The notes: generated by a model from the sequence alone, not told the origin. A stretch of DNA of 58,336 bases from Patescibacteria group bacterium (GCA_041667185.1 JBAYFM010000010.1:1-58336); one strand, 5' to 3'. Shown: positions 6,224 to 58,336, numbered from the stretch's first letter. Numbers and translations: made by a program.

Positions 6224-6287
6224 GGGAGAGTGAGGGAGTGCGGTAGTCAGGGAGAGACGGAGCCACGTCGTTCGCGAGCGACGTGGC
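6224..6287. repeat. octamer-phased GGAG-type intergenic array, locus 1, with 24-nt palindrome
   Basis: gggagagtgagggagtgcggtagtcagggagagacggag followed by CCACGTCGTTCGCGAGCGACGTGG (6263-6286). Confidence 0.8.
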
Positions 6288-6430
6288 GGAGGGTGTGGGG
6301 CTCCTCCTCGCCCGCCACTCGCTACCAGGGGCCCCTGCCCCTGGTGCTCGCGGCTCCTTCGGAGCCCGGGTCGTCCGCAACTTGCCATACTAGGCAAGTT
6401 GCGTCCGTACCCTTCGAGCCCCACACTTCC
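6284..6430 (-). other. 147-nt structured element bounded by inverted copies of the tRNA-Ser T-arm/acceptor 3' half, with an encoded CCA end
   Basis: Minus-strand 5' arm GGAAGTGTGGGGCTC is RC of 6416-6430. The 3' arm GAGCCCCACACCCTCC-G-CCA is RC of 6284-6303 and is identical to the last 20 nt of tRNA-Ser (6472-6491). Three perfect internal hairpins lie at 6377-6402, 6352-6366 and 6324-6345. Confidence 0.55.
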
Positions 6431-6471
6431 ATAATTAAATGTGACCCCGCATTAAGCGGAGTCACATTTAA

Positions 6472-6560
6472 TGGCGGAGGGTGTGGGGCTCGAACCCACA
6501 AGACCCCTTACGGGGTCGCAGTTTAGCAAACTGCTGGCTTACCATTCGCCTCAACCCTCC
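6472..6560 (-). tRNA. tRNA-Ser (anticodon GCU), long variable arm, CCA encoded
   Basis: RC reads GGAGGGT TG AGGC GAATGGTAA GCCA GCAGT TTGCTAA ACTGC GACCCCGTAAGGGGTCT TGTGG GTTCGAGC CCCAC ACCCTCC G CCA. It folds as a cloverleaf with acceptor, anticodon and T stems, and the anticodon loop is TT-GCT-AA. Confidence 0.9.
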
Positions 6561-10201: not shown

Positions 10202-10208
10202 AGTGTGA

Positions 10209-10904
10209 TCAGACCGTGGACGCGTTATCGCTCACGCGCAATTTATCGGTGTCGCTCATCTTCTCGGAATCGAAAGTTTCCGGATTATAGACCCGATAAT
10301 AGAGCTCGATGAGGCTCTGGGTGTCGAGCTGTTGGGATTTCAGGCCCATGCTGTTCAGCGCGCTCTGCATATGCTCGACGCGGAGCATCAGCTGCTGTTT
10401 GCGCTCCTGGAAACGCTTCTCGGCGAGCCGCACGGACAGCGCGGGCGAGATCGCGTCCTGCAGCTGCGCGAAAAATCCCTTGCGCTTGTCGGACAGCGGA
10501 TTGTACGGCACGACCACGAAGAACTGCTTCTGCATGATCTGTCCGAGATCGATGAGTTCCTTGATGAACGCGCGGTATTCGGAGATCTGCATCCGTAGCA
10601 GGTCGTTCTGCTGTTCCCGTTCGGCCGCCTGCAGGCGTTCCAGATATTTGTCGATGTTCAGGCGCCGCGACTGGATGACGATCTGCAGCGGATACTCGAG
10701 CGAGTTCAGGAAAGCGACGTACTGGGCGATGACCGCGTTCTGCTCGTCCTCGGATTTGAGGGCGAAATTGATGCTGGCGACCATGATGACGGCCCGAAGC
10801 GTGCCATCGCGCATGATGACGATGTCCTCCTTGATCTCGGCAATGTCGATGTAACGCTGGGTGGCCGGACCCGGTTTCGGACCGGCCAATTTCTGGGACT
10901 GCAT
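10209..10904 (-). CDS. stand-alone protein resembling the N-terminal domain of Gram-positive VirB4 (TcpF/Orf16-type)
   Basis: 231 aa. DIAEIKEDIVIMRDGTLRAVIMVASINFALKSEDEQNAVIAQYVAFLNSLEYPLQIVIQSRRLNIDKYL matches the I..I..d.i....G....v..v..iNF.L.S..Eq..i...f..fL..l..p.Qi pattern. No P-loop is present. Confidence 0.7.
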   Translation of the reverse strand: MQSQKLAGPKPGPATQRYIDIAEIKEDIVIMRDGTLRAVIMVASINFALKSEDEQNAVIAQYVAFLNSLEYPLQIVIQSRRLNIDKYLERLQAAEREQQNDLLRMQISEYRAFIKELIDLGQIMQKQFFVVVPYNPLSDKRKGFFAQLQDAISPALSVRLAEKRFQERKQQLMLRVEHMQSALNSMGLKSQQLDTQSLIELYYRVYNPETFDSEKMSDTDKLRVSDNASTV

Positions 10905-10910
10905 AGGACT

Positions 10911-11348
10911 CTAGTCTTCCGGATTATAGACGCCGCCCGTGTTCACGATGAGCGACAGTTCGTTCAGCTTGGTCGTGCCCAGCGCCTCCTTGTAGATCCT
11001 CTTTTTGGGCGGCAGGGGCGGCGGAACCCTGACGATGAAATTCAACTCGGCATCGGTCAGGTTCTTGTCCCAGGCCCGCAGAGCCGGCCGCCGCAGCGTC
11101 TGGACCAGATTGAGCAGAAAAAAATGGAACGGTTGGCCGTTGACCCGGAAAAAAGCCAGGGTGCCGCCGATGAGAAGCAGGGCGATGGCCACGACCAGGA
11201 ACAGGCTGAAATCGAAGAGCTTGTAGGCCAGGAACTGAAAAAACGCCATTGCGAGCAGGATCACGAATTGGCGCGTAGTGACCGGCCCGATGATCTTATC
11301 CTCCACCTCGATGAATTGCGGCACGGTGTACTTCATGACGTCTTCCAT
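10911..11348 (-). CDS. PrgI family (VirB3-like) small membrane protein
   Basis: 145 aa. KYTVPQFIEVEDKIIGPVTTRQFVILLAMAFF followed by two TM segments is the typical PrgI layout. It lies immediately upstream of the VirB4-type genes. Confidence 0.75.
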   Translation of the reverse strand: MEDVMKYTVPQFIEVEDKIIGPVTTRQFVILLAMAFFQFLAYKLFDFSLFLVVAIALLLIGGTLAFFRVNGQPFHFFLLNLVQTLRRPALRAWDKNLTDAELNFIVRVPPPLPPKKRIYKEALGTTKLNELSLIVNTGGVYNPED

Positions 11349-30889: not shown

Positions 30890-32054
30890 TTAAATATCGT
30901 CCGACTCGGCCTCTTCAGCCGCTGACGTGCCATCCGCGGACGACGTGTCGCCGCCGCCCTGTTTGCGATACCGCAGATAAGACTCAACGAACTCGTCGAG
31001 GTCGCCATTCAGGATGCGTTCCGCGTCCTGGGTCTCATATTTGGTGCGATGATCTTTGACCAGCTTGTACGGATGCAAGACGTAAGACCGCGCCTGATTC
31101 CCCCACTCCGCGCTCGTGAACTCGCCGCGCAATTTTTTCTTCTCGGAATTACGCTCCTGCAGATAGATGGCGTGCAGCTTGGCGCGCAAGATGCGCATGG
31201 CGGTTTCCTTGTTCTGGGTCTGCGAGCGTTCGTTCTGGCAAGAGACGACGATGCCCGTCGGCAGATGCGTGACGCGCACGGCCGAATAGGTCGTCTGCAC
31301 GCCCTGGCCGCCGTGGCCGCCGGCGAGGAACGTGTCGATGCGCAGATCCTCGGGCTTGATCTTCACCTCTTCGATGTCGCCAAGATCGGGCAGGACCTCG
31401 ACCAGGGCGAAGGACGTTTGGCGGAGATGGTCGGCGTTGAACGGCGAAAGCCGCACGAGGCGATGCACCCCGGCCTCGGATTTCAGATGACCATAAGCAA
31501 AGCGCCCCTCCACGGAGAAGGTCGCACTCTTGATTCCGGCTTCAGCGCCACGATGCTCATCCAACGTTTTGACGCGCCATTTTTTAAGCTCAGCATAGCG
31601 GAAAAACATCCGCATCAGCATCTCCGCCCAATCCTGGGCTTCAGTGCCGCCGGCTCCCGCGTGGACCGCCACGATGGCGTCGCGGTCGTCGTATTTATCA
31701 TCCATGAGCGTCGCGAATTCCAGTTTCGCCAGGCGCTCCTTGATGGCGTCGAACTGCTTCAGGATCTCCGCTTCGGAAGCCTCGTCCCCTTCTTCAGCGG
31801 CCAATTTGGCGAACTCCAAAAGTTCGGACGAATCCGTCCGGAGAGATTTCCAGGCTTCGTAATATTCCTTCAACTCGGCCAGTCGGCGCGAGACGCGCTG
31901 GGCCGTTTCGTTGTCTTTCCAGAAATCAGGCTGCTGCGATTCCCATTCCAGTGATTCGATTTCGCCGTGGGTCTTATCCAGGTCAAAGCAACCCCCACGT
32001 CCCGGAGACTTTGGCGGCGATCTCGTCGATGGCGTGGAGGTATTGTTTGATCAT
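30890..32054 (-). CDS. prfB: peptide chain release factor 2, requires a programmed +1 frameshift
   Basis: Frame 0 runs 32054..31986 (MIKQYLHAIDEIAAKVSGTWGLL) and meets an in-frame TGA at 31985-31983. The +1 frame runs 31984..30890 and continues DLDKTHGEIESLEWESQQPDFWKD... into the track ORF, which carries SPFNADHLRQTSF and GGHGGQGVQTTYSAVRVTH (GGQ motif). Confidence 0.9.
31982..31997 (-). promoter_or_regulatory. RF2 autoregulatory +1 frameshift site
   Basis: Minus strand reads TGG GGG TTG CTT TGA C. This is an SD-like GGGGG followed 3 nt later by the slippery CTT-TGA-C, the same layout as E. coli prfB. Confidence 0.85.
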
Positions 32055-32570: not shown

Positions 32571-32820
32571 ATTGGGAATATAGAGAGTGCGGGAGTCAGG
32601 GAGTGACGGAGTTACGGAGTCATTGTCTCTACCTGATCCAATGAACGGGAGAGTGCGGGAGTGGAGGAGTTGGGGGAGACCCGACAAAAACTCCTGCACT
32701 CCCTCACTCCTGCACTCTCACACCCCAAAACTCCCATACTCCGTCTCTCCCTGACTCCGCCACGTCGTTCGCGAACGACGTGGCTCCGTCTCTCCTGCAC
32801 TCCAGCACTCCAGCACTCTC
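32571..32820. repeat. octamer-phased GGAG/CTCC array, locus 2 (compound, with 24-nt palindrome)
   Basis: gagagtgcgggagtcagggagtgacggagttacggagtc ... gagagtgcgggagtggaggag ... ctcctgcactccctcactcctgcactctc ... CCACGTCGTTCGCGAACGACGTGG (32760-32783) ... ctcctgcactccagcactccagcactctc. Confidence 0.85.
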
Positions 32821-37916: not shown

Positions 37917-37948
37917 AAAAAAATGACGCCTCTGCCGAGAGAGGCGTC
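37917..37948 (-). terminator. intrinsic terminator after paralog 1
   Basis: Minus strand reads GACGCCTCT ctcggc AGAGGCGTC ATTTTTTT. Confidence 0.85.
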
Positions 37949-37969
37949 GTGAGCGATCCGTGAGCCGGA

Positions 37970-38518
37970 TCAGGGCTCAAGGCGCGTGGCCAGGAAGCGA
38001 TGGTAAGACGACCAACCGCTCGCAAAACCCTTGGACCGCGCCAGAATGAAGTACAGGTCGTACGTCCGCCGATAGGGCCGATCCCAGAGGCTGAGATTGA
38101 AGACCAGATCCTGGTCGCGATAAGTCGCGCCCAGAGCGGTGATGTCGCATTGCCGCCGGAGACGATGCGGATGCTGGGCCAAAAAGGACAGGAACTCGTG
38201 GGCGTCGGCCGGCCGGTAACCGCGCTGGGCCAAATCGGCCAGAGCCTGGTCGGTTTCCGGGAACCAGAGGGAGCCATCAAGTCCCAGGATTTCGAAGTCG
38301 CGGACGTAAGGCGTGACGTGGCAGACCGGATAGATCTCGGACCACGGCCGTGCGAACGGCTCATGGCTGTAAATCTTGATCCCGTCAAAACCGGCTTGAC
38401 GGACGAGATCGTCGATGGGCACGTTCGGATCGACGTAGACGCGGAAAGATTCCGGGCCCGTCAATTTCCAACGCCGCCGCGCTTCCCAATTCGGGAACAA
38501 CTTCGGGAAAAGATCCAT
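37970..38518 (-). CDS. hypothetical protein, tandem paralog 1
   Basis: 182 aa from MDLFPKLFP..., with AAGGAG 6 nt upstream of the ATG at 38518. It shares YRPADA.EFLSFLAQ.PHR.RRQ.DI..LGA.Y and HRFLATRL.P with paralog 2. Confidence 0.75.
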   Translation of the reverse strand: MDLFPKLFPNWEARRRWKLTGPESFRVYVDPNVPIDDLVRQAGFDGIKIYSHEPFARPWSEIYPVCHVTPYVRDFEILGLDGSLWFPETDQALADLAQRGYRPADAHEFLSFLAQHPHRLRRQCDITALGATYRDQDLVFNLSLWDRPYRRTYDLYFILARSKGFASGWSSYHRFLATRLEP

Positions 38519-38560
38519 GACCGTCTCCTTTGACGCTGCGGCCGCCATGGCCGTGACCGA

Positions 38561-38589
38561 AACTTAATCCGCCGAGACGCGAGTGTCAA
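38561..38589 (-). promoter_or_regulatory. promoter of paralog 1
   Basis: Minus strand reads TTGACA ctcgcgtctcggcggat TAAGTT (17-nt spacer). Confidence 0.55.
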
Positions 38590-38625
38590 GACGGAGCGAG
38601 GCGGATCGCGACGGCCTGACGGAAC

Positions 38626-38653
38626 AAAAAAAACGCCCCGTTGAGAGGGGCGT
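38626..38653 (-). terminator. intrinsic terminator after paralog 2
   Basis: Minus strand reads ACGCCCC tctcaac GGGGCGT TTTTTTTT. Confidence 0.85.
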
Positions 38654-38675
38654 AGCGAGCGACCCGTAAGCCGGA

Positions 38676-39227
38676 TCAAGGATCAAGGCGCGTGGCGAGG
38701 AAACGGTGGTGGCTCAACCAATAACTGCGCAGGCTGCGACTCCTCAGAAGCAGATAGACGAGCCGGTACTCGCGTTCGTTCGGCCGATCAAAGACCTCAA
38801 GGACGTAAACTCGATCTTCTTCCTGGTACACGGCACCCAAGGGGATGATGTCGTGCTGACGCCGCTGCCGATGCGGATACTGGGCCAAAAAGGACAGGAA
38901 CTCGCGAGCGTCAGCCGGCCGATAACCGCGTGCGGCGAGGACGGCCAAGGCTTCGTCTAAGTCGAGTCTTTGATGATCCCCACAGAGCTGCAGGAGTTCG
39001 AAGCGGCGGACGTAAGGCTTGCCGCCTTTGGCCGGATAGATCTCGGGCCACGGACGTTTGAGGCTGTCGAATCCAGTGAGACCGCTCACGCGATCAAATC
39101 CGGCCCAATGGACCAGTTCTTTGAAAGACATCCGCGGGTCGACACAGACGTCGAAATGATCCGGAAGAGGCAGCTTCCAACGCCGCAACGACTCAAGCTC
39201 GGGGAATAGCTTTGGGAAAAGATCCAT
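38676..39227 (-). CDS. hypothetical protein, tandem paralog 2
   Basis: 183 aa from MDLFPKLFP..., with the same AAGGAGACGGTC-ATG start context as paralog 1. Roughly half of the residues are identical by eye alignment. Confidence 0.75.
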   Translation of the reverse strand: MDLFPKLFPELESLRRWKLPLPDHFDVCVDPRMSFKELVHWAGFDRVSGLTGFDSLKRPWPEIYPAKGGKPYVRRFELLQLCGDHQRLDLDEALAVLAARGYRPADAREFLSFLAQYPHRQRRQHDIIPLGAVYQEEDRVYVLEVFDRPNEREYRLVYLLLRSRSLRSYWLSHHRFLATRLDP

Positions 39228-39269
39228 GACCGTCTCCTTTGACGCTGCGGCCACTATGGCCGTGGCTGC

Positions 39270-39298
39270 AACTTAATCCGCACGTAGGCAAGAGTCAA
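39270..39298 (-). promoter_or_regulatory. promoter of paralog 2
   Basis: Minus strand reads TTGACT cttgcctacgtgcggat TAAGTT (17-nt spacer). Confidence 0.55.
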
Positions 39299-39371
39299 GT
39301 TGGTTCGAAGCGGATCTTCAACGCTCTGAATATCCCGAGCTGACGCTCGGGATCGAACTGAAATGGCGAAC

Positions 39372-39397
39372 AAAAACCGCCGAGCTGGGCTCGGCGG
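39372..39397 (-). terminator. intrinsic terminator after the PRC-barrel gene
   Basis: Minus strand reads CCGCCGAGC cca GCTCGGCGG TTTTTG. Confidence 0.8.
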
Positions 39398-39415
39398 CTG
39401 TCGGCTGATAATTGT

Positions 39416-39727
39416 CTACGACCTGACCGATTGACTCGCGCTCGGCACGGCCGCTTCGGCACCGCGCAAGGCCACAGCTTCGGCCGCCTCGACGGCAATG
39501 AACTCGTCCTTGACCACCATCTTCTCATCGTCGAGCGAAATGACCTGGGTGGGATGGACCAGCAGTTCCTGCGGCAGCAGCGCCGAGAGCGAACGTGACT
39601 TGGCGACGACGTACTGCGCCACAGTGTGGCTCTCCGAATCAATGACCAGCGCTTTCAGTTTGCCGATCCGGCTCCCGTCCCGGGAAAAGACCGGCAGGCC
39701 GCGCAGCTCGTTATCACGGAGTCTCAT
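39416..39727 (-). CDS. PRC-barrel domain protein
   Basis: LRGLPVFSRDGSRIGKLKALVIDSESHTVAQYVV... is the typical PRC-barrel N-terminal pattern; 103 aa. Confidence 0.65.
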   Translation of the reverse strand: MRLRDNELRGLPVFSRDGSRIGKLKALVIDSESHTVAQYVVAKSRSLSALLPQELLVHPTQVISLDDEKMVVKDEFIAVEAAEAVALRGAEAAVPSASQSVRS

Positions 39728-41819: not shown

Positions 41820-41900
41820 AGTGCTGGTGGCGGCGCGTCCGACTACTGTCGTCCGGGCCGGTATGAATATTTTAGCTCAACTGAGCTGATTTTTTACTTA

Positions 41901-41934
41901 TATAAAATGACTAGTTCTAGGATTAGAACTAGTC
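41901..41934 (-). promoter_or_regulatory. perfect 11-bp hairpin plus U-rich run in the nusA leader (attenuator candidate)
   Basis: Minus strand reads GACTAGTTCTA atcc TAGAACTAGTC ATTTTATA. It lies between the predicted promoter (41943-41971) and the nusA ATG (41819). Confidence 0.5.
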
Positions 41935-41942
41935 TTATGGGG

Positions 41943-41971
41943 AGAATACATGATTTGAGCCGGTTTGGCAA
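41943..41971 (-). promoter_or_regulatory. nusA promoter
   Basis: Minus strand reads TTGCCA aaccggctcaaatcatg TATTCT (17-nt spacer). Confidence 0.5.
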
Positions 41972-41992
41972 GGCTGAGAGTGACAAAGTCAT

Positions 41993-42090
41993 GGGGAGAC
42001 GGAGATGCGAAGATACGGAGTGCGGGAGAGACGAAGAGACGGAGTCAGGGAGTTTAAGAGTGCAGGAGTGCTGAAGTGCTGGAGAGACGG
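41993..42090. repeat. octamer-phased GGAG-type array, locus 3
   Basis: ggggagacggagatgcgaagatacggagtgcgggagagacgaagagacggagtcagggagtttaagagtgcaggagtgctgaagtgctggagagacgg. Confidence 0.85.
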
Positions 42091-42092
42091 AC

Positions 42093-42123
42093 AATAAAAA
42101 TGCGGCCCGGGATCCCGGGCCGC
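42093..42123 (-). terminator. intrinsic terminator after methyltransferase 42148..42738
   Basis: Perfect 22-nt palindrome GCGGCCCGGGATCCCGGGCCGC, followed on the minus strand by ATTTTTATT. Confidence 0.85.
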
Positions 42124-42147
42124 GCGACGATCAAGATGGCTCCGGTC

Positions 42148-42738
42148 TCAAATGCGCCGGAAGATCTTCCAGACCTCGACCACGTCAGGGCCGAACATCA
42201 GCGACGGCGTGTGCATTTCCAGGCGGCTTTCTTCGATGCCGGCCAGAGGATGTTCGCCGAGCCGATCAATGGTCTGATAGCTCACGATATTGCCCGCCTC
42301 GTCGACGGTCTCCTGATCGCGCCGCGATTCGTAGTAGAATCCGCCGACGAGACCGCAGGTCAGTTCCGGAAAATTCCGGAACAGCTCGCCGTAGATCCGG
42401 TAGCGTTCGACGACCGGCAGGCAAGCCTCGATGGAGAACAGGCTGACGAAAGCCTGGGGCGGGAACGGCAGCTGCGACCGCAAGAAAGCGGGGTCGGCGT
42501 AGTCGCCGCTGATGACGCGCCCGGGATGCCCGGGGTCGTGGCGGTCCACGCCGACGTATTCGCGAAAGGCTCCGTGCCGGAAATATTCGCCGAGCCCGCA
42601 GCCGAGATCAACGACAGCGGCCTGCTTCGCGTTGCAACGGCCGTCGAAGATCCGGAAAACCCAGCCATGATTCTCGCGGACGGTCGGCTCGGCCAGATAT
42701 TGCGCGTAAGCCTCGAAAAACTTCTGATCGTAAGCCAT
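42148..42738 (-). CDS. class I SAM-dependent methyltransferase
   Basis: Motif I is AAVVDLGCGLGEYF; 196 aa. Confidence 0.7.
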   Translation of the reverse strand: MAYDQKFFEAYAQYLAEPTVRENHGWVFRIFDGRCNAKQAAVVDLGCGLGEYFRHGAFREYVGVDRHDPGHPGRVISGDYADPAFLRSQLPFPPQAFVSLFSIEACLPVVERYRIYGELFRNFPELTCGLVGGFYYESRRDQETVDEAGNIVSYQTIDRLGEHPLAGIEESRLEMHTPSLMFGPDVVEVWKIFRRI

Positions 42739-42779
42739 GCTCGCCTCCGAAGCGGTTTGAGAAAAGAACAGCTGGCGAC

Positions 42780-42808
42780 AACTTATCCATTCCGGGATCG
42801 GGTGTCAA
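42780..42808 (-). promoter_or_regulatory. promoter of methyltransferase 42148..42738
   Basis: Minus strand reads TTGACA cccgatcccggaatgga TAAGTT (17-nt spacer). Confidence 0.55.
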
Positions 42809-42820
42809 TCAGTGGGTGGA

Positions 42821-42976
42821 GAGAGTGCAGGAGTGCAGGAGTGCGGGAGAGACGGAGATGCGGAGAGACGGAGTCAGGAAGAGACGGAGTCAGGGAGTGA
42901 TGAAGCACTCCAGCACTCCAGCACTCCAGCACTCCTGCACTCCCGCACTCCCGCACTCCTGCACTCCTGCACTCTC
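42821..42976. repeat. octamer-phased palindromic element, locus 4 (archetype): 156 nt in strict 8-nt register with 29-bp perfect terminal inverted repeats
   Basis: gagagtgc aggagtgc aggagtgc gggagaga cggagatg cggagaga cggagtca ggaagaga cggagtca gggagtga tgaagcac tccagcac tccagcac tccagcac tcctgcac tcccgcac tcccgcac tcctgcac tcctgcac tctc. The first 29 nt are the exact reverse complement of the last 29 nt. Confidence 0.95.
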
Positions 42977-43007
42977 AATAAAAAGAGACGAAGCGATGCT
43001 TCGTCTC
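42977..43007 (-). terminator. intrinsic terminator after gene 43020..43619
   Basis: Minus strand reads GAGACGAAGC atc GCTTCGTCTC TTTTTATT. Confidence 0.85.
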
Positions 43008-44533: not shown

Positions 44534-44561
44534 ATTCTAACAGGCGACCAAAAAAAAGCAA
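44534..44561 (-). promoter_or_regulatory. promoter of gene 44079..44507
   Basis: Minus strand reads TTGCTT ttttttggtcgcctgt TAGAAT (16-nt spacer). Confidence 0.5.
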
Positions 44562-44570
44562 GTGAGCGGC

Positions 44571-44722
44571 GGAGTTGGGGAGGATGGGAGAGACGGAGAG
44601 ACGGAGTCAGGAAGAGACGGAGTCAGGGAGTGATGAAGCACTCCAGCACTCCAGCACTCCAGCACTCCAGCACTCCGCCACGTCGTTTGCGAACGACGTG
44701 GCTCCAGCACTTCCCTACTCCC
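44571..44722. repeat. octamer-phased array, locus 5, with (GCACTCCA)4 and the 24-nt palindrome
   Basis: It shares the 43-nt block ggagagacggagtcaggaagagacggagtcagggagtgatgaa with locus 4. That is followed by four full GCACTCCA units, then CCACGTCGTTTGCGAACGACGTGG (44678-44701). Confidence 0.9.
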
Positions 44723-44725
44723 AAC

Positions 44726-44752
44726 AAAAAACCGGAAGCGCGGCGCTTCCGG
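44726..44752 (-). terminator. intrinsic terminator after methyltransferase 44771..45325
   Basis: Minus strand reads CCGGAAGCG ccg CGCTTCCGG TTTTTT. Confidence 0.85.
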
Positions 44753-44770
44753 CTCACTGATCCGATCGAC

Positions 44771-45325
44771 TCACGGCTTGGTGAAAAGCAGGCCGTAATG
44801 ATAACGACCCGGCTCGAACGCCTTCAAAAACACCAAGCCGGCGGCTTCCGCCAATTTTCGGGCTTCCTCGGCGCTGATGCGGGAGGCTTGATCAGGACCG
44901 AACGCCGGCCCCGTCGGTTTCCAATCGATCACGACGAACTTGCCGCCCGAGCGCACGGTCCGGACACACTCGCTCATCATCGCCTCCCGATGGCGCGACA
45001 TGAAAAGATTATTGATGAGCAGACCGATGTCCAATTCGCCGTCAGGAATACTGACGCCCTTGGGCCTTTCCAGATCGCCCCAGATCGTCTCGACGTTATT
45101 GGCCGTCTCCAGTTTGATGCGGCCCTGGATGCCGCCGAGCACGGACTTCAGGATGTCGACCGCGTAAACTTTTCCCGACGGACCGACCAGACGCGAGGCC
45201 GGAAAAACATAATGGCCGATGGTGCCGCAACCGAAATCAGCGACCTTCATCCCGGCGCGCGTATCCGCTTCCTCCAGGACCTTGAAAGGATCGATGAGTT
45301 CTTTGCCCGTGGGTATGTAGGCCAT
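44771..45325 (-). CDS. class I SAM-dependent methyltransferase
   Basis: Motif I is KVADFGCGTIGHY; 184 aa. Confidence 0.7.
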   Translation of the reverse strand: MAYIPTGKELIDPFKVLEEADTRAGMKVADFGCGTIGHYVFPASRLVGPSGKVYAVDILKSVLGGIQGRIKLETANNVETIWGDLERPKGVSIPDGELDIGLLINNLFMSRHREAMMSECVRTVRSGGKFVVIDWKPTGPAFGPDQASRISAEEARKLAEAAGLVFLKAFEPGRYHYGLLFTKP

Positions 45326-45338
45326 AGTGATGGAGTGT

Positions 45339-45602
45339 TTAGGCCGGAGGCGTGAACAGGCGGCCGACGGTCCCCATGAGGAAACCGCCGATCATGCCGG
45401 TAGCAGCCAGAAAACCGATGAAAATGATGCCGAGGCCGATGAGTTTATAGAACAGGCGCGTGCCGCCGGACGTGCCCAGATGCTGCTCCGCCCATTCGAT
45501 GGCGCCAAAATTATTGAGGAACCACTCGGACTTGATGACGAACAACAGGCCGACCCCGACGGCCGCCAGACCTCCCAGGACCCTTCCGATGATGGCGAAC
45601 AT
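45339..45602 (-). CDS. small membrane protein (hypothetical)
   Basis: 87 aa with two to three hydrophobic segments, tightly spaced with the downstream gene. Confidence 0.55.
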   Translation of the reverse strand: MFAIIGRVLGGLAAVGVGLLFVIKSEWFLNNFGAIEWAEQHLGTSGGTRLFYKLIGLGIIFIGFLAATGMIGGFLMGTVGRLFTPPA

Positions 45603-45885: not shown

Positions 45886-45914
45886 ATTATAGCCTTAATA
45901 AGCGACGCGAGCAA
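45886..45914 (-). promoter_or_regulatory. promoter ~135 nt upstream of tRNA-Val
   Basis: Minus strand reads TTGCTC gcgtcgcttattaaggc TATAAT (17-nt spacer). Confidence 0.5.
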
Positions 45915-45921
45915 TTAATAT

Positions 45922-45990
45922 GAAGTGTGGGAGAGACGGAGTGCAGGAGTGCTGAAGTGCAGGAGTGCGGGAGAGATGAAAGATTGGAGC
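45922..45990. repeat. octamer-phased GGAG-type array, locus 6
   Basis: gaagtgtgggagagacggagtgcaggagtgctgaagtgcaggagtgcgggagagatgaaagattggagc. Confidence 0.8.
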
Positions 45991-46017
45991 AATAAACCGA
46001 GCTGAGCTCGGTAAATA

Positions 46018-46044
46018 CAAAAACCAGCCGGTGTTGTCCGGCTG
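46018..46044 (-). terminator. intrinsic terminator ending the tRNA-Leu trailer
   Basis: Minus strand reads CAGCCGG acaaca CCGGCTG GTTTTTG. Confidence 0.8.
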
Positions 46045-46183
46045 ATTCTCACCACTGAACTCGGCTCTGGAGTTTCGGTGGGCCAGCTCAGCTAGCCACA
46101 CCTCGCTCTGGTCGCTCGGTTGTTTCATCAGAGAATGCGAAGCTGAGCTTCGCCATCATCTTTTGGAACCGAGCTGAGCTCGG

Positions 46184-46340: not shown

Positions 46341-46393
46341 CTTCCCACTACTCCCTGACTCCATCTCTCCCCAACTCCGTCTCTCCCACCCCC
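46341..46393. repeat. octamer-phased array, locus 7 (CTCC orientation on the plus strand)
   Basis: cttcccactactccctgactccatctctccccaactccgtctctcccaccccc. It abuts the lipid-kinase stop codon (46395-46397). Confidence 0.8.
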
Positions 46394-47200: not shown

Positions 47201-47229
47201 ATCATAATCATAAGCGGCGGGACTGTCGA
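47201..47229 (-). promoter_or_regulatory. promoter of the lipid kinase gene
   Basis: Minus strand reads TCGACA gtcccgccgcttatgat TATGAT (17-nt spacer). Confidence 0.5.
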
Positions 47230-47247: not shown

Positions 47248-47346
47248 TTGGGAGAGTGCAGGAGTGCTGGAGTGCGGGAGTACGGGAGAGACGGAGTCAG
47301 GGAGTCAGTATCTTAACTTCGTATCTTCAGCACTCCAGTACTTCAA
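47248..47346. repeat. octamer-phased array, locus 8
   Basis: ttgggagagtgcaggagtgctggagtgcgggagtacgggagagacggagtcagggagtcagtatcttaacttcgtatcttcagcactccagtacttc. Confidence 0.85.
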
Positions 47347-47355
47347 GAGTATAGT

Positions 47356-47381
47356 AAAAAACCACCGGCTGTCGCCGGTGG
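47356..47381 (-). terminator. intrinsic terminator after the bactofilin gene
   Basis: Minus strand reads CCACCGGC gaca GCCGGTGG TTTTTT. Confidence 0.85.
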
Positions 47382-47420: not shown

Positions 47421-47861
47421 TTAGATGGCCGGCAGCTTCACTTTTTCTTCCGGCTTCTCGGCCAGCTTGAACTGCGGCTTGGCCTGGTTCTCATTCTTGC
47501 CGGTCTCTTGGCCCATGGCCACGCGGCCGTTGACCTGCGCGCCAGCCGCGACGGTCAGGACCTTGGCGCGGACGTCGCCATAGATGTGGGCCGTGGCTTC
47601 GAGTTCCAGTTTCTCGGCCACCACGATGTTGCCGCGGACTTCGCCCGCGACCGTGGCGCTCGCCGCGGACACATCAGCGTTGATGCGGGCCCGCTCGCCG
47701 ACGCGGAGATTCTTCTCGGTCTTCAGGCTCCCCTCGACGACGCCTTCGATGAGCACATTGCCCTGGCTCACGAATTCGCCCTCGACTTTGACGGAGGCGG
47801 CTATCACTGTTTCGGCTTCGTTGCCGATATCGCGGTTCGCCATAGGTTTGGCTTGAAACAT
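47421..47861 (-). CDS. bactofilin (polymer-forming cytoskeletal protein)
   Basis: Repetitive beta-helix pattern VIAASVKVEGEFVSQGNVLIEGVVEGSLKTEKNLRVGERARINADVSAASATVAGEVRGNIVVAEKLELEATAHIYGDVRAKVLTVAAGAQVNGRV. Confidence 0.85.
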   Translation of the reverse strand: MFQAKPMANRDIGNEAETVIAASVKVEGEFVSQGNVLIEGVVEGSLKTEKNLRVGERARINADVSAASATVAGEVRGNIVVAEKLELEATAHIYGDVRAKVLTVAAGAQVNGRVAMGQETGKNENQAKPQFKLAEKPEEKVKLPAI

Positions 47862-47994
47862 ATTATGACGGCGGCGGCGCCAAGAAAGGCTGACGCCCCG
47901 GCCCGACGGTCCGTACGCAGATTAATAAAACACCCCGCGATTATACCATTGGTCCGCGGAGTGTAAATAGCCGCTCAACTGAAAGCCAGTCGGC

Positions 47995-49599
47995 CTACAG
48001 TTCAAAAGGCAGCGTGAAACCGAAAGTCGAACCCAAACCCTTGCCCGGCGATTCGACTAGGATCTCGCCGCCGTGGGCCTGGATGATATTTTTGACGATG
48101 AAGAGCCCGATGCCGGAGCCGTCTTTGTTGACCTTGATACCGCTCGTGCCACGCTGGAACATCTCGAACAAACCGCGCTTGTCCGCGTCACTGAGTCCGG
48201 CCCCGCTGTCCTTGACGCGCACTTCGATGTGTTTGCTGGTAGCCGCAGCCGAAATCGTGATCCCGCCGGTCACGGTATATTTGACCGCGTTATCGATCAG
48301 GTTCATGAGCACATGGTAGATCTTGCCGCCGTCACAAACGATCATCGGCAGCGTCAATGGGACATCGACTTCCAGCATCAATTTCTTGGTGCCAGCGAGC
48401 GGCTTGATGCTGCTCACCGCCCGTTCGATGACCTCGCGCAGATTGGTTTCAGAACGGTAAAGTTCGAACTTGCCCAGTTCGATCTTCGTGGCGTCCAGGA
48501 ACGTTTCAATGGTCTCAAGCAGCTGGTTCGCCGCGACCAAATTACTGACGATGATCGGACGCTGTGCCGCGGTGAGCTCGCCGAAATCGCCGCGGTTCAG
48601 CATATCCAGATAACCGCGGATGCCGGCGAGCGGCGCGCGGAACTGATGCGAGGCGATGGACACGAACCTGGTCTTGGAGCGATCCGCTTCGATGAGTTTG
48701 GCGTTCATCGCCGTCACCTGCTCGTTCAGGATCTGCAATTCGCGAACGTGGCGGATCTCCCGCATGATGGTCCGACTGGTCACGATCCCGTAAAAGATGA
48801 GCACGATCAGGGTCACCAGCCGCAGGGAAAAATCAACCGTTGACCGAGCCACCGCGATGTCGGCGATGACCACGAACAGCGCCACGATGACGAAGACCTC
48901 GATGCTCACGAGCCGCAGATCGACGAACAGGCGGTGGCGGATGATGCTGAGCGCGATGATGAATACGCCGATCATGAGCGCGACATTGCCGACCCAGAAC
49001 GACTCGGCCAGCGTCGTCAGTTCGGAACCATACATCGCGACGAAAACGATATTGAAAGAGACGATGGTCCCGGCGACAATCGAAAGCAAATGCTTACGAT
49101 CAAGTTCGGGCTGGCGGCGGCTGGCGGCGCCCAACAAAACGAGTCCCGCGATGGTCAAGATAACGAAATGAATCGCGAAGAATATCCGACCTGGACCGAA
49201 AACCGGCAAGCTCCAAGATTCGCCGGCGGACCGGACCAGGAACGGCGTATTGTAAGCGATCCAAAAAAGAACGGCGTTGGGCAAAAACAGCAGAAACTGT
49301 TTCCAGCCGCGGGGAATATCTTGCCGGACGTAGGAGTAAGCGAAGAAAAAATACAGCACCGGCAACAACGAACCGACAAAAAACAAAGTCCGGATCCAGA
49401 ACAACACCTGATTCGGCTCGACGGACATGCGCCACAACACCAGGGAAAAGCTCCAGAACGACACAGCGATGAGCAACGAGCTCAGCGTCACGTTCCGAAA
49501 GTCGCCGCGCCGATCAAAATAGACCCACATGCCCAGACCGAAAGCCAGAGTCGCGGTCAGGATGGCGTTGTGTGTCAGAAAATAGGTCAGGAAACTCAT
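47995..49599 (-). CDS. sensor histidine kinase (polytopic N-terminal sensor)
   Basis: H-box SIASHQFRAPLAGIRGYLDML, N-box NLIDNAVKYT and G-boxes VKDSGAGL / GIGLFIVKNI. The N-terminal ~260 aa are hydrophobic. Confidence 0.9.
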   Translation of the reverse strand: MSFLTYFLTHNAILTATLAFGLGMWVYFDRRGDFRNVTLSSLLIAVSFWSFSLVLWRMSVEPNQVLFWIRTLFFVGSLLPVLYFFFAYSYVRQDIPRGWKQFLLFLPNAVLFWIAYNTPFLVRSAGESWSLPVFGPGRIFFAIHFVILTIAGLVLLGAASRRQPELDRKHLLSIVAGTIVSFNIVFVAMYGSELTTLAESFWVGNVALMIGVFIIALSIIRHRLFVDLRLVSIEVFVIVALFVVIADIAVARSTVDFSLRLVTLIVLIFYGIVTSRTIMREIRHVRELQILNEQVTAMNAKLIEADRSKTRFVSIASHQFRAPLAGIRGYLDMLNRGDFGELTAAQRPIIVSNLVAANQLLETIETFLDATKIELGKFELYRSETNLREVIERAVSSIKPLAGTKKLMLEVDVPLTLPMIVCDGGKIYHVLMNLIDNAVKYTVTGGITISAAATSKHIEVRVKDSGAGLSDADKRGLFEMFQRGTSGIKVNKDGSGIGLFIVKNIIQAHGGEILVESPGKGLGSTFGFTLPFEL

Positions 49600-53260: not shown

Positions 53261-53289
53261 AACGTAACCCACTCGCTTTAAGCTGTCAA
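53261..53289 (-). promoter_or_regulatory. promoter of the PLP decarboxylase gene
   Basis: Minus strand reads TTGACA gcttaaagcgagtgggt TACGTT (17-nt spacer). Confidence 0.5.
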
Positions 53290-53486
53290 TTAAGATGATT
53301 TCCCGCGCTTTTCATCTTCCGCCGCGCCTTGATGATCAATAATGCAGCCATTTTCAATGGTCCGGCGCGCGGCCCCGCTGACCGATGAATCGGGAGCTAA
53401 AACAAGCCTGATTATTCGGATGACGCGGCAAGGAGCCGGCAGACCGCCGCCGACCGGATCGCTGTAATTGAAGCCTTTTAAAAGAT

Positions 53487-53512
53487 AATAAAACCCCCTC
53501 GGACCGAGGGGG
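53487..53512 (-). terminator. intrinsic terminator after the HdcA-like gene
   Basis: Minus strand reads CCCCCTCGG t CCGAGGGGG TTTTATTATCTTTT. The G/C run is part of the stem. Confidence 0.75.
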
Positions 53513-53542
53513 GGGGTAAGGTCGGGATGCGGATCAGTCGCA

Positions 53543-54358
53543 TCACCCGCATTCGGAGAGCCAATCGTCGAGCGTCATCTGCCGCAGGCGTCTGAGGCCG
53601 TCGCGCGGCCAGGCGTTTCCGGCCAACCGCAGATACGGCGCGGCCACGAGAGCGCAGCCGACCTCGCCGGCAGCGACATCGATATCGGCGCAGGCCACGT
53701 AAATGCTGGCGCAGCGCAAACCTTGGTTCGCGGCGACCGCAAGCACGCTCGCGGCCATCGAACCAGTGATCTGACCGCGCTGGGCGGCGAGATCGCCGCC
53801 GCAGGCGAAAGAGCCGACATCCTCCATGAAGATGCAGGCCGACCAGGCCCGATCCTCGACGATGCCGAGGCCGAAAGCGGCGAAACACCGAGCCGGACCA
53901 GCGATGGTCGTAGACTTGTAGGCCGCGGGGCACAGGGAGCCGGGCAGGATCCGGAATCTCGAATCCGTGGCCGTACCGAGCAGGGCTTTCGAAGCCTCGA
54001 TGAGCGGCGCGGCGTCGTAGACCGGCACCAGATGCCCGGAAGCGTCAGGCTGGTCCAGAAGCTTGCGATCGAGATCGGCAACACGGGCCAGATCGTAGCC
54101 CCAGATGAGGCCGCCCGGACCACAAAAGGACGAGACCTGGATGAGGTTGGTCTGACCAAGATAGGCCGCAGCTGTCTCCGCCATGTCAAAAGCGTGAATG
54201 CCGTCGAGCAGCTTCGAACCGTCGTGGCCGAAACGCTGCGGCACCTTGGCGGCGGCAGCGTTCACCGCGACAATGTAGCGGCTGGGATCAAGCGCGCCTT
54301 CGCAGAAATCCGCGAGCGAGCTCTTGAGATCGGCAGTATGCGCTCTGATGCTTCTCAT
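53543..54358 (-). CDS. pyruvoyl-dependent decarboxylase proenzyme, histidine decarboxylase (HdcA) family-like
   Basis: AAYLGQTNLIQVSSFCGPGGLIWGYDL closely parallels the Lactobacillus 30a HdcA self-cleavage region AYIGQINMTTASSFTGVQGRVIGYDIL as I recall it. IFMEDVG parallels MFVEDAG. The putative Ser-Ser cleavage codons are 54133-54128. The ATG at 54358 is preceded by GGAGG. Confidence 0.65.
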   Translation of the reverse strand: MRSIRAHTADLKSSLADFCEGALDPSRYIVAVNAAAAKVPQRFGHDGSKLLDGIHAFDMAETAAAYLGQTNLIQVSSFCGPGGLIWGYDLARVADLDRKLLDQPDASGHLVPVYDAAPLIEASKALLGTATDSRFRILPGSLCPAAYKSTTIAGPARCFAAFGLGIVEDRAWSACIFMEDVGSFACGGDLAAQRGQITGSMAASVLAVAANQGLRCASIYVACADIDVAAGEVGCALVAAPYLRLAGNAWPRDGLRRLRQMTLDDWLSECG

Positions 54359-57451: not shown

Positions 57452-57459
57452 ATGCGGGA

Positions 57460-57488
57460 AGCTTAGCGGAAAAACATATTTATTGAAA
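57460..57488 (-). promoter_or_regulatory. candidate tyrS promoter, so close to the ATG that the mRNA would be (nearly) leaderless
   Basis: Minus strand reads TTTCAA taaatatgtttttccgc TAAGCT tcccgcat ATG (17-nt spacer, 8 nt between the -10 and the ATG). Confidence 0.35.
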
Positions 57489-57490
57489 GA

Positions 57491-57630
57491 TGCGGAGTCG
57501 GAGGAGAGGAAGTCATGGAGTTGCGGGGTGCGGAAGCCGGATCCGCTCCCTGACTCCGTCACTCCCACACTCCCTCACTCCTGCACTCTCAAACTACCCG
57601 ACTCCGTCTCTCCCCAACTCCGTCTCTCCG
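57491..57630. repeat. octamer-phased array, locus 9 (GGAG arm then CTCC arm)
   Basis: tgcggagtcggaggagaggaagtcatggagttgcggggtgcggaagccggatccgctccctgactccgtcactcccacactccctcactcctgcactctcaaactacccgactccgtctctccccaactccgtctctccg. Confidence 0.85.
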
Positions 57631-57653
57631 TTTCTTCCTGGTGCCTAAACTCC

Positions 57654-57679
57654 AAAGAAAAAGAGCGGCTGAGCCGCTC
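57654..57679 (-). terminator. intrinsic terminator after gene 57706..58071
   Basis: Minus strand reads GAGCGGC tca GCCGCTC TTTTTCTTT. Confidence 0.8.
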
Positions 57680-57705
57680 AAAAGATTCCGTAGGCGAATG
57701 GCCGC

Positions 57706-58071
57706 CTAGGGCAGCTGGTAGCCCAACAAGGCGAGCCTTAGCCGGATCATGCTGGCGAATTCCGGAACGAACGCGTACACGCAGCAGAGCTGGTCGACGG
57801 ACGGATTCTTGAACAGGAGCAGCGACGCGGCTTCGAAACGGAAACGTGCGTGGCACATGACGACCTGGCACAAGATGTCTGTCGGCAGCCGCTCCGAATG
57901 ACGCAGCAATTTCGCCCAGGCCAGGTCGCTCAATTCCGGAAAAGACAGGATGTCCACGAGTTGCAGGGTGCCGATCTCCATGTTGGAACTGCTCAAGATC
58001 GGAATCATCCGTTTGATGAAGCTCTCGCGATTGAAACCCGGCGCGTCGATATCATTGCGGTTGTCCGGCAT
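57706..58071 (-). CDS. hypothetical protein
   Basis: I trimmed the start to the ATG at 58071 (MPDNRNDIDAPGF...), which is preceded by GGAGGAAAAC. I recognise no motif. Confidence 0.6.
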   Translation of the reverse strand: MPDNRNDIDAPGFNRESFIKRMIPILSSSNMEIGTLQLVDILSFPELSDLAWAKLLRHSERLPTDILCQVVMCHARFRFEAASLLLFKNPSVDQLCCVYAFVPEFASMIRLRLALLGYQLP

Positions 58072-58170: not shown

Positions 58171-58336
58171 CCAGAGTCAGGGAGAGACGGAGTTACGAAG
58201 AGACGGAGTCACGTCGTTCGCGAACGACGTGACGGAGTCAGGGAGTGATGAAGCACTCCAGCACTCCAGCACTCCAGCACTCCAGCACTCCAGCACTCCA
58301 GCACTCCAGCACTCCAGCACTCCAGCACTCCAGCAC
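58171..58336. repeat. octamer-phased array, locus 10, ending in at least 10 tandem GCACTCCA units that run off the window
   Basis: ccagagtcagggagagacggagttacgaagagacggag TCACGTCGTTCGCGAACGACGTGA (58209-58232) cggagtcagggagtgatgaa, then (gcactcca) x10.5 at 58253-58336. Confidence 0.95.

Follow-up and report, generated by a model that had tools for sequence, protein, structure and literature searches.

Octamer arrays between terminators and promoters in a Patescibacteria genome look like dispersed non-autonomous repeats

In the Patescibacteria DNA analyzed here (58,336 nt, GC content 0.60; hereafter the window), where the minus strand carries nearly all of the genes, the same order recurs between transcription units: stop codon, terminator hairpin with T-run, an array of 8-nt repeats, and the promoter of the next gene. 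Is the array part of this punctuation, or has it come to lie within it? A preliminary description of the sequence read the fixed placement as a sign of function, and proposed a transcriptional insulator, an UP-element-like or protein-binding platform, an RNA 3'-end stabilizer, or a preferred insertion niche for a mobile repeat. The source names attached to homologues of the NusA encoded in the window include Patescibacteria group and Candidatus Uhrbacteria.

The loci were read on the minus strand from the sequence and from a consensus scan for terminators and promoters. This confirmed the order at the six loci previously described (A to F), as well as two arrays that have no terminator before them (G and H). 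All arrays named in the preliminary description are real, but two more exist, one beside groEL and one beside tRNA-Ser. The features are as follows.

42148, minus: stop codon of locus A
42093–42123, minus: terminator A, of the 196-aa methyltransferase gene; hairpin GCGGCCCGGGATCCCGGGCCGC with 9 G-C pairs, then ATTTTTATT; top-ranked in the scan
41976–42090, minus: array A, a solo arm, of CTCC type when read on the transcribed strand
41943–41971, minus: nusA promoter, TTGCCA-17-TATTCT, from the consensus scan
41934–41900, minus: nusA leader hairpin and T-run, conserved
43020, minus: stop codon of locus B
42977–43007, minus: terminator B, from the consensus scan; orthologous hairpin in the array-free relative L137
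42821–42976, minus: array B, two-armed, with 29-bp perfect terminal inverted repeats GAGAGTGCAGGAGTGCAGGAGTGCGGGAG
42883–42906, minus: nonrepetitive core GCTTCATCACTCCCTGACTCCGTC within array B, with identical copies at 44616–44639 and 58231–58254
42780–42808, minus: predicted promoter B, of the gene at 42148–42738, TTGACA-17-TAAGTT
44771, minus: stop codon of locus C
44726–44755, minus: terminator C, from the consensus scan
44571–44725, minus: array C, two-armed, with a 24-nt palindrome nested at 44678–44701
44534–44561, minus: predicted promoter C, TTGCTT..TAGAAT
47421, minus: stop codon of locus D
47356–47381, minus: terminator D, CCACCGGCGACAGCCGGTGG then TTTTTT; the scan lists the same hairpin on the plus strand
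47248–47346, minus: array D, left arm degenerate, right arm intact and ending TGCACTCTC
47201–47229, minus: predicted promoter D, TCGACA-17-TATGAT, from the consensus scan
57706, minus: stop codon of locus E
57654–57679, minus: terminator E, from the consensus scan
57491–57633, minus: array E, two-armed
57460–57488, minus: predicted promoter E (TyrRS), TTTCAA-17-TAAGCT
46018–46044, minus: terminator F, within a conserved structured segment of 187 nt downstream of tRNA-Leu
45922–45990, minus: array F, a solo arm of CTCC type that precedes the tRNA-Val promoter
45886–45914, minus: predicted promoter F (tRNA-Val), TTGCTC-17-TATAAT
46341–46393, minus: array G, a solo GGAG-type arm reaching from the DAGK stop codon to the tRNA-Leu promoter, without a terminator
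58171–58336, minus: array H, more than 10 copies of GGAGTGCT, palindrome at 58209–58232; cut by the contig end
58119–58146, minus: predicted promoter following array H, which has no terminator before it
32584–32819, minus: composite array between groEL and a DUF4870 gene, palindrome at 32760–32783
6228–6290, minus: short CTCC-type arm with palindrome at 6263–6286, downstream of tRNA-Ser
38548–38676, 39254–39416, 47861–47995, and 53262–53543: the four terminator-bearing gaps without an array

The 8-nt periodicity claimed for the arrays is far above expectation. Runs of at least three phased GGAG/CTCC units number 16 in the window, whereas 50 shuffles average 0.06, and a motif-free lag-8 autocorrelation scan returned 12 true segments, located at 10 loci, compared with 0.2 per shuffle. 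TRF reports period 8 with 10.6 perfect copies at 58252–58336 and 5 copies at 44637–44676; elsewhere, tandem runs reach 13 copies in contig L131 and as many as 38 units in contigs of other phyla. Outside the arrays the octamer words occur at their Markov expectation (GGAGTGC, 4 observed and 4.3 expected; GGAGTGCT, 0 and 0.4; GGAGAGAC, 1 and 1.0). All 10 array loci of the window are intergenic, and together they amount to 1,366 nt, or 2.3% of its length. A census of the gaps places arrays in 17 of 47 co-directional gaps and in none of the roughly five convergent ones, a small sample, since the census holds only about five convergent and four divergent gaps. An Rfam search of the window returned three tRNAs only.

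Terminator-like sites are enriched (44 in the window, 20 ± 4.7 in shuffles), and the hairpin and T-run sites at 42123, 44755, 43007, and 57679 are among the strongest in 20 kb in the consensus scan; by sequence reading, the hairpins 47381–47356 and 46044–46018 are equally clear. The promoters were found where the preliminary description had placed them, but hexamer pairs resembling promoters show no overall enrichment (8 versus 6.4 ± 2.9), so that individual promoters have to be read as predictions. The exception is the nusA promoter, which together with its leader hairpin is conserved in five relatives (L134, L137, L138, L141, and L142). The true ATG of TyrRS is at 57451, only about 9 nt past the predicted −10 box, and the TyrRS mRNA would therefore be leaderless or nearly so. 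Eight of the ten arrays begin 0–11 nt after a hairpin and T-run. This left junction is tighter than the right one, where 0–25 nt separate the array end from the −35 hexamer (4 nt in the case of array A, which ends in ..GTCACTCTC). The sequence TTTTTATTG lies ahead of arrays A, B, and F and not ahead of the others; given this and the variable distance to the −35 hexamer, we rejected the idea that the T-run or the −35 hexamer is carried by the element itself.

The arrays are not uniform: most are built of two inverted arms, of which the GGAG arm comes first in the 5' to 3' direction and the CTCC arm second. A full element comprises a 5' arm of GGAGNNNN octamers, a short center (TCAT), and a 3' arm of NNNNCTCC octamers, and is thus a large imperfect palindrome with the same reading on both strands. 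From the outside toward the center, the units of an arm follow the order (G)AGAGTGCN, two to three GGAGTGCN, GGAGAGAC, and GGAGTCAG; AGAGTGCN is the outermost arm unit in 15 of its 20 occurrences, and unit positions 1–5 (GGAGT) are much better conserved than position 8. Within the clade, the polarity of GGAG-then-CTCC over the reverse is 7:0, as is expected for terminal inverted repeats. Solo arms are found in both orientations on the sense strand (approximately 10 CTCC versus 6 GGAG). Folded as RNA, array B reaches −110.8 kcal/mol (z −11.3), array C −75 kcal/mol (z −4.4), and array E −69.9 kcal/mol (z −4.1), and the groEL array also folds, less strongly than array B. Arrays A (−4.5 kcal/mol, z +1.1), F (−4.9 kcal/mol), and G (−3.3 kcal/mol), all solo arms, are unstructured. 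G-quadruplexes were considered and dropped, as most window units give GG tracts only and the potential is accordingly weak.

Several features tie the copies at different loci to each other by descent. Arrays B and C have 118 nt in common at 88% identity and in register, the 24-nt core GCTTCATCACTCCCTGACTCCGTC is exactly the same in three loci (B, C, and H) where none would be expected by chance, and a 70-nt submodule is common to the window at 32650 and to contig L128, from another organism, at 1182. Four arrays contain a perfect nested palindrome of 24 nt, which is absent from the remainder of the window; its context is always CTCCG[palindrome]CTCCGTCT, an arrangement that resembles a secondary insertion accompanied by a duplication of 5 bp. 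For the elements themselves, no common direct repeat that would represent a target-site duplication was seen at the flanks of 15 inspected termini; past the terminus, CCACCCAC is a frequent flanking sequence and may itself still be part of the element. No transposase, RAYT, or other candidate mobilizing gene came up in Pfam scans of about 40 window ORFs, and neither a transposase nor a mobilizing gene was found in L127 or the other fetched loci.

For a comparison with relatives, we used seven syntenic contigs with the gene order tyrS-argS-HK-HK-bactofilin-DAGK-tRNAs-MTase-...-nusA-yidC-...-groES/EL-...-prfB. A lag-8 scan over 5–21 kb each revealed no octamer-type period-8 array in L134, L136, L137, L139, and L142, whose NusA proteins are 77–78% (L134, L139, and L136), 89% (L137), and 80% (L142) identical to that of the window; the one weak segment flagged in these five, L134 6941–6989, lies in a tRNA spacer and is of a different nature. 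At the orthologous gaps these relatives keep recognizably the same terminators and promoters, with approximately 2–45 nt between the T-run and the next −35 hexamer, and approximately 2–12 nt where this was measured directly; the groEL gaps of L134 and L136 are examples of such short spacing. In L137, one T-run lies about 45 nt from the next −35 hexamer with a hairpin between them, and the hairpin of terminator B, the nusA promoter, and the leader are all retained with nothing in between. The punctuation therefore works without arrays, and the arrays are dispensable for it. Their positions also differ between lineages. L138 has a single short, degenerate, two-armed array, at the position of array C. 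The three short arrays of L141 lie at gaps where the window has none; two of them take up intercistronic gaps immediately ahead of an ATG, and one includes the window core CTTCATCACTCC. The 196-aa methyltransferase gene, located between arrays A and B, is missing in all of the syntenic relatives. We also considered arrays as borders of gene cassettes; the window-specific insertions 53543–51355 and 39254–37350 have no arrays, leaving no consistent link. An ENA metagenome contig is identical to the window. On a shorter timescale, the JGI contig L002, from an independent sample, is 99.97% identical to the window, and the arrays are identical: all 7 positions that differ in 21.6 kb of this one strain pair lie outside them.

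A scan of metagenome contigs with a 19-nt arm word matched further organisms (L124, L127–L129, L131, and L133), in which the arms, termini, core, and nested palindrome all recur, for the most part in the order stop codon, terminator, array, promoter; the Ga0172379 organisms carry the same element family. The constancy of this order, correctly described for the six window loci, does not extend to the family as a whole: in L128 the array lies between the stop codon and the terminator, with the promoter following, three arrays lie between stop codon and promoter without any terminator, and two of the L141 arrays depart from it as well. Scanning GTDB with three tandem copies of GGAGTGCN gave at least 120 loci; the matches listed, among which the window organism does not appear, include many from Longimicrobium (Gemmatimonadota) and from Verrucomicrobiota MAGs, and others from Planctomycetota and further phyla. 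At least nine of the loci among the matches listed have paired arms, six of them in Verrucomicrobiota MAGs and the other three in genomes labeled Bifidobacteriaceae, Desulfobacterales, and Schlesneria (a planctomycete), and the GGAG arm comes first in all of these (9:0). Among the same matches, Gemmatimonadota/Longimicrobium have single-orientation arrays only. In Verrucomicrobiota the context differs: the arrays there occupy the narrow space from a stop codon to the following ATG. Searching 8.3 million papers by sequence, we found neither the GGAGTGCT dimer nor the AGCACTCC dimer, and keyword searches for CPR repeats gave nothing specific. The palindrome is absent from the viral collections searched, where the sole match to an octamer pair lies inside a phage coding region and was dismissed as chance.

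We consider it probable, at roughly 60%, that the arrays are lineage-specific, dispersed, non-autonomous repeats of a MITE/REP/STRR-like kind, which spread by copying from site to site, change size by slippage, and are retained only in an untranscribed slot. They look like selfish or neutral insertions and not like required punctuation, and of the four options in the preliminary description, a niche in which a mobile repeat preferentially inserts agrees best with the data; the window does show the fixed placement, but the function deduced from it is not borne out by relatives that have the same terminators and promoters without arrays. Copying, as opposed to independent slippage at each site, follows from the 118 nt common to B and C, the exact 24-nt core, the terminal AGAGTGCN, the conserved unit order, and the copies in other organisms; the perfect GGAGTGCT runs point to slippage on top of copying. 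The lack of a uniform structure, with two-armed copies that fold strongly and solo arms that do not, also fits a repeat family. Some copy mechanism acting in trans would spread copies to new intergenic sites, where the homogeneous GGAGTGCT tract, judging from perfect runs of more than 10–13 units, may grow and shrink through slipped-strand mispairing, arm loss would give rise to solo arms, and the 24-nt palindrome may secondarily colonize the unit CTCCGTCT. The terminator–promoter spacer would be nearly the only DNA that is neither coding nor transcribed, allowing elements to persist there. Insertion elsewhere would place a hairpin of −70 to −110 kcal/mol, with SD-like GGAG and anti-SD-like CUCC, into an mRNA, and selection would presumably remove such transcribed insertions. 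Since the ancestral spacer is usually only a few nucleotides wide, any insert necessarily abuts both the T-run and the −35 hexamer, and no function needs to be invoked. The recurrent order could then be a by-product of element survival or possibly of targeting on the T-run side, as the tighter left junction would allow for a preference for the terminator hairpin or T-run. Counting against dispersed repeats, the adjacency to the T-run (8 of 10 within 0–11 nt) is closer than selection alone strictly requires, a share of 2.3% of a streamlined genome could mean that the arrays are kept for a reason, GGAGT is conserved over position 8 as in a protein-binding motif, and we found no mobilizing gene, no target-site duplication, and no array difference in L002.

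Alternatively, the arrays could be boundaries or insulators, formed by a protein reading GGAGT cooperatively every 8 bp (compare the metboxes of MetJ and the heptads of the omega repressor) or by cruciforms, which would block read-through RNA polymerase or the diffusion of supercoils between packed units. Arrays at 8 of 10 unit borders that abut T-run and −35 hexamer, the conservation of positions 1–5 with position 8 left free, the strict arm polarity in the clade and at the nine or more loci of other phyla, their density in a compact genome, and their identity in two independent samples would all be accounted for. Nevertheless, we regard this as unlikely: the arrays are missing at the orthologous borders of five syntenic relatives, in which terminators directly adjoin promoters, those of L141 occupy different gaps, four terminator–promoter gaps of the window have none, and length, arm number, solo-arm orientation, and distance to the −35 hexamer all vary; in addition, solo arms cannot form cruciforms, and no candidate binding protein was identified. 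The variable distance of 0–25 nt likewise speaks against the UP-element-like platform, which needs a fixed geometry, and, with the absence of arrays at orthologous promoters and of an identified binder, sets them apart from operator arrays of the metbox or heptad type. A broader proposal, that GGAGT-N3 inverted-arm arrays are a cross-phylum class recognized by shared machinery (either a protein reading the 8-bp-phased GGAGT or a recombinase or transposase dedicated to the arrays) and that the CPR lineage recruited them as insulating boundary elements, appears to us distinctly unlikely as a whole.

A role at the RNA level is harder still to sustain. On read-through transcripts, C-rich arms could act as Rho-loading (rut-like) back-up terminators and two-armed hairpins as 3' stabilizers or processing sites, and the solo arms A and F are indeed C-rich, G-poor, and unstructured on the transcribed strand, two-armed copies give very stable hairpins, the L128 array upstream of its terminator lies in a 3' UTR, and REP elements and Xanthomonas heptamer arrays have been reported as transcribed (PMC3733652, PMC4692102). 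Most arrays, however, follow a strong intrinsic terminator and would rarely be transcribed, solo arms occur in both orientations, a common structure is absent, and the syntenic relatives manage without arrays, so that we judge the two parts of this proposal together to be very improbable; the suggested 3'-end stabilizer in particular fails on the location of the arrays downstream of the T-run. Independent microsatellite-like slippage of a GGAG-containing seed at each site, with no transfer between sites, would readily produce the perfect tandem runs of the window, L131, and other phyla. It is largely refuted by the nonrepetitive cores exactly common to several loci, and the in-register match of B and C, the conserved unit order and terminal unit, and the submodule common to the window and L128 leave it scarcely plausible. 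Finally, GCTGGAGT resembles the Chi sequences of Escherichia coli and Haemophilus, and the uptake sequences of Neisseria and Haemophilus often form inverted pairs at terminators; the arm polarity would point Chi-like words outward from the center. Clustered uptake or Chi-like recombination words are an explanation to which we attach almost no weight, and it was rejected on the word counts outside the arrays, which are at the Markov expectation, whereas genuine DUS, USS, and Chi words are enriched all through coding DNA.

If the arrays are dispersed repeats, as we favor, pneumococcal BOX and the Correia elements of Neisseria are comparators of the MITE type. MITEs with a modular structure or tandem repeats have been reviewed (PMC10969869), and a Porphyromonas gingivalis MITE contains an internal minisatellite (PMC4596501). 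The elements described here resemble MITEs in being noncoding and 60–240 nt long with terminal inverted repeats (29 bp and perfect in array B), in having many dispersed intergenic copies with internal tandem modules of variable number, and in their lineage-specific proliferation beside promoters and terminators; the ten loci within 58 kb, near-identical copies, and presence/absence differences between relatives are all in line with this. They differ in that neither a target-site duplication nor a parent IS was found (window ORFs and L127), their inverted repeats are made of octamers, and many copies are solo arms. REP/BIME (REPIN) elements of Proteobacteria are extragenic, high-copy, and palindromic, often in inverted pairs that fold into larger structures, with a patchy distribution across species and a debated function in termination, supercoiling, or mRNA stability (Di Nocera et al. 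2013, PMC3733652). Here, too, copies are extragenic, palindromic, patchily distributed, and located downstream of coding regions between unidirectional ORFs, and the nested palindrome of 24–26 nt, (G)CCACGTCGTTCGCGAACGACGTGG(C), is REP-sized and has a CGTC. This CGTC is paired inside the stem, however, and so differs from the unpaired tag of REPs, the window showed no RAYT gene, the convergent gaps favored by REPs are empty in the few cases at hand (about five, a number too small to weigh), and phased 8-nt units of variable copy number stand in place of a single hairpin of 20–40 nt.

Also comparable are intergenic heptamer arrays, namely the STRR or GGGGA(C/T)T repeats of Nostoc and GGGAATC of Xanthomonas (Rehm et al. 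2015, PMC4692102) and the TAACTGA repeats of Beggiatoaceae, Cyanobacteria, and Bacteroidetes (MacGregor 2015, PMC4679880). Likenesses are the short tandem unit, a strong intergenic preference with loci in the tens to hundreds, a position close to the upstream ORF's 3' end and for the most part between ORFs of the same direction, the occasional inverted pair, as well as lengths that vary between close species, a patchy phylogeny, and an unresolved function. The window arrays have the head-to-tail copies, at period 8, and the intergenic bias of STRRs, but mostly in a fixed succession of unit types. The unit has 8 nt instead of 7, the arrays combine several unit types in a fixed order and have a defined terminal unit, a shared core, and a nested palindrome, the G-quadruplex potential is weak (GG tracts), and, unlike TAACTGA, which sits just upstream of start codons, the arrays lie upstream of promoters. 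We file the element as a variant of the general REP/MITE/heptamer-array kind and as a member of no named family; we do not place it among MITEs, as neither a duplication (15 termini) nor a parent IS (window ORFs and L127) was found, or among REPs, as the tag is not unpaired and no RAYT was seen in the window.

For genome annotation the arrays have practical consequences. Contigs break off within them, as is the case for the window, L131, L063, L031, and L034. The arrays also create spurious ORFs (42076–42900 and 44630–45355) and false N-terminal extensions, the longest TyrRS ORF gaining 39 codons from array E, and they inflate intergenic lengths, so that MAG annotation pipelines should mask them. 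Were the boundary or protein-platform reading true, the arrays would represent a compact and portable insulator of transcription units. CPR/Patescibacteria genomes, at about 1 Mb, are very gene-dense, and repeats that take up 2.3% of the sequence and about one-third of the co-directional gaps are unexpected baggage; in the array family, nature provides a case in which to test how selfish DNA can hold out in a streamlined genome.

GGAGT-N3 octamer arrays, among the matches listed by the GTDB scan, also occur in Verrucomicrobiota MAGs (L022, L063, L071, L077, L086, and L097) and in Longimicrobium (L031, L057, L070, and L076). The Verrucomicrobiota arrays combine a heterogeneous GGAG arm with a homogeneous (AGCACTCC)n arm and take up the space from a stop codon to the following ATG. 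The Longimicrobium arrays are long (GGGAGTGC)n runs adjoining GC-rich hairpins. Wherever paired arms were seen in these distant Phyla, the GGAG arm precedes the CTCC arm (9:0 among the matches listed).

Several contigs have their first or last bases within a long, perfect run of octamers: the window (58252-58336), the metagenome contig L131 (1-110), the Verrucomicrobiota MAG contig L063 (1-60), the Longimicrobium contig L031 (1-250), and a further contig, L034 (1-160). Short-read assemblies are broken by octamer arrays, which are therefore probably under-counted in MAGs. Annotation is affected as well: since several reading frames through the window arrays are free of stop codons, ORF artefacts arise, and TyrRS, whose true ATG lies at 57451, receives a false N-terminal extension of 39 codons (loci affected: 57452-57568, 42076-42900, 44630-45355, and 57575-57871).

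Structured segments follow two of the tRNA genes of the window, and one of them has a homologue in L141, a relative that keeps the gene order of the window:
45997-46183, minus strand, 187-nt segment immediately 3' of tRNA-Leu
6284-6432, minus strand, structured element of ~147 nt downstream of tRNA-Ser (6472-6560)
L141 6175-6318, homologue of the 6284-6432 element, downstream of tRNA-Leu

The 187-nt segment matches positions 7632-7818 of L128 at 94% identity and a portion of L127 at 78%, both metagenome contigs from other organisms, and it shares no flanking genes with either locus. It carries CACCGAGCTCAGCTCGGT hairpins at both borders and folds with an MFE of -91.8 kcal/mol (z -7.3); an Rfam search with it returned no match. 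Small hairpins of the GAGCTNAGCTC form are repeated in and around it (46137-46153, 46012-45996, and 41872-41889), and this recurrence suggests a second repeat or RNA family.

The element following tRNA-Ser carries at its 3' end a copy of the final ~20 nt of that tRNA, comprising the 3' strand of the T-stem, the acceptor strand, and CCA, and its own 5' end is complementary to this copy; in the L141 homologue both ends match tRNA-Leu, the tRNA preceding it. RNAalifold on these two sequences (n = 2) gave 40 pairs, 11 of them with compensatory double changes, and an Rfam search found no match. Possible identities of the element are a new tRNA-end-mimicking RNA and an att-site remnant.

Further features of the window concern its genes:
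31982-31988, minus strand, CTTTGAC upstream of the RF2 ORF (30890-31873)
37937-38607 and 38643-39316, tandem duplication, copies about 70-81% identical
8300-11348, cluster encoding a TraG/VirB4-like ATPase and TraC-like and PrgI-like proteins
41900-41934, minus strand, nusA 5' leader hairpin GACTAGTTCT..AGAACTAGTC, then a T-run, downstream of the nusA promoter and ahead of the start codon
42148-42738, minus strand, class I SAM methyltransferase gene (196 aa, motif VVDLGCGLG) with arrays A and B on either side

The RF2 ORF looks truncated, with an apparent 250-nt "gap" that is explained by CTTTGAC, a classic prfB +1 programmed frameshift site. The tandem duplication yields two paralogous 192-aa genes with no assigned function; the syntenic relative L134 lacks both, together with the neighbouring deaminase gene. 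The cluster at 8300-11348, resembling type IV secretion or conjugation systems, adjoins giant surface-protein genes (3212, 1651, and 934 aa).

The nusA leader hairpin and T-run, conserved in the syntenic relatives L134, L137, L138, L141, and L142, are probably an autoregulatory attenuator. The methyltransferase gene is absent from all syntenic relatives, and its product has no Pfam match. With a top homologue only 57% identical and homologues scattered across Patescibacteria, DPANN archaea, and Legionellaceae, the gene is probably an insertion acquired horizontally.
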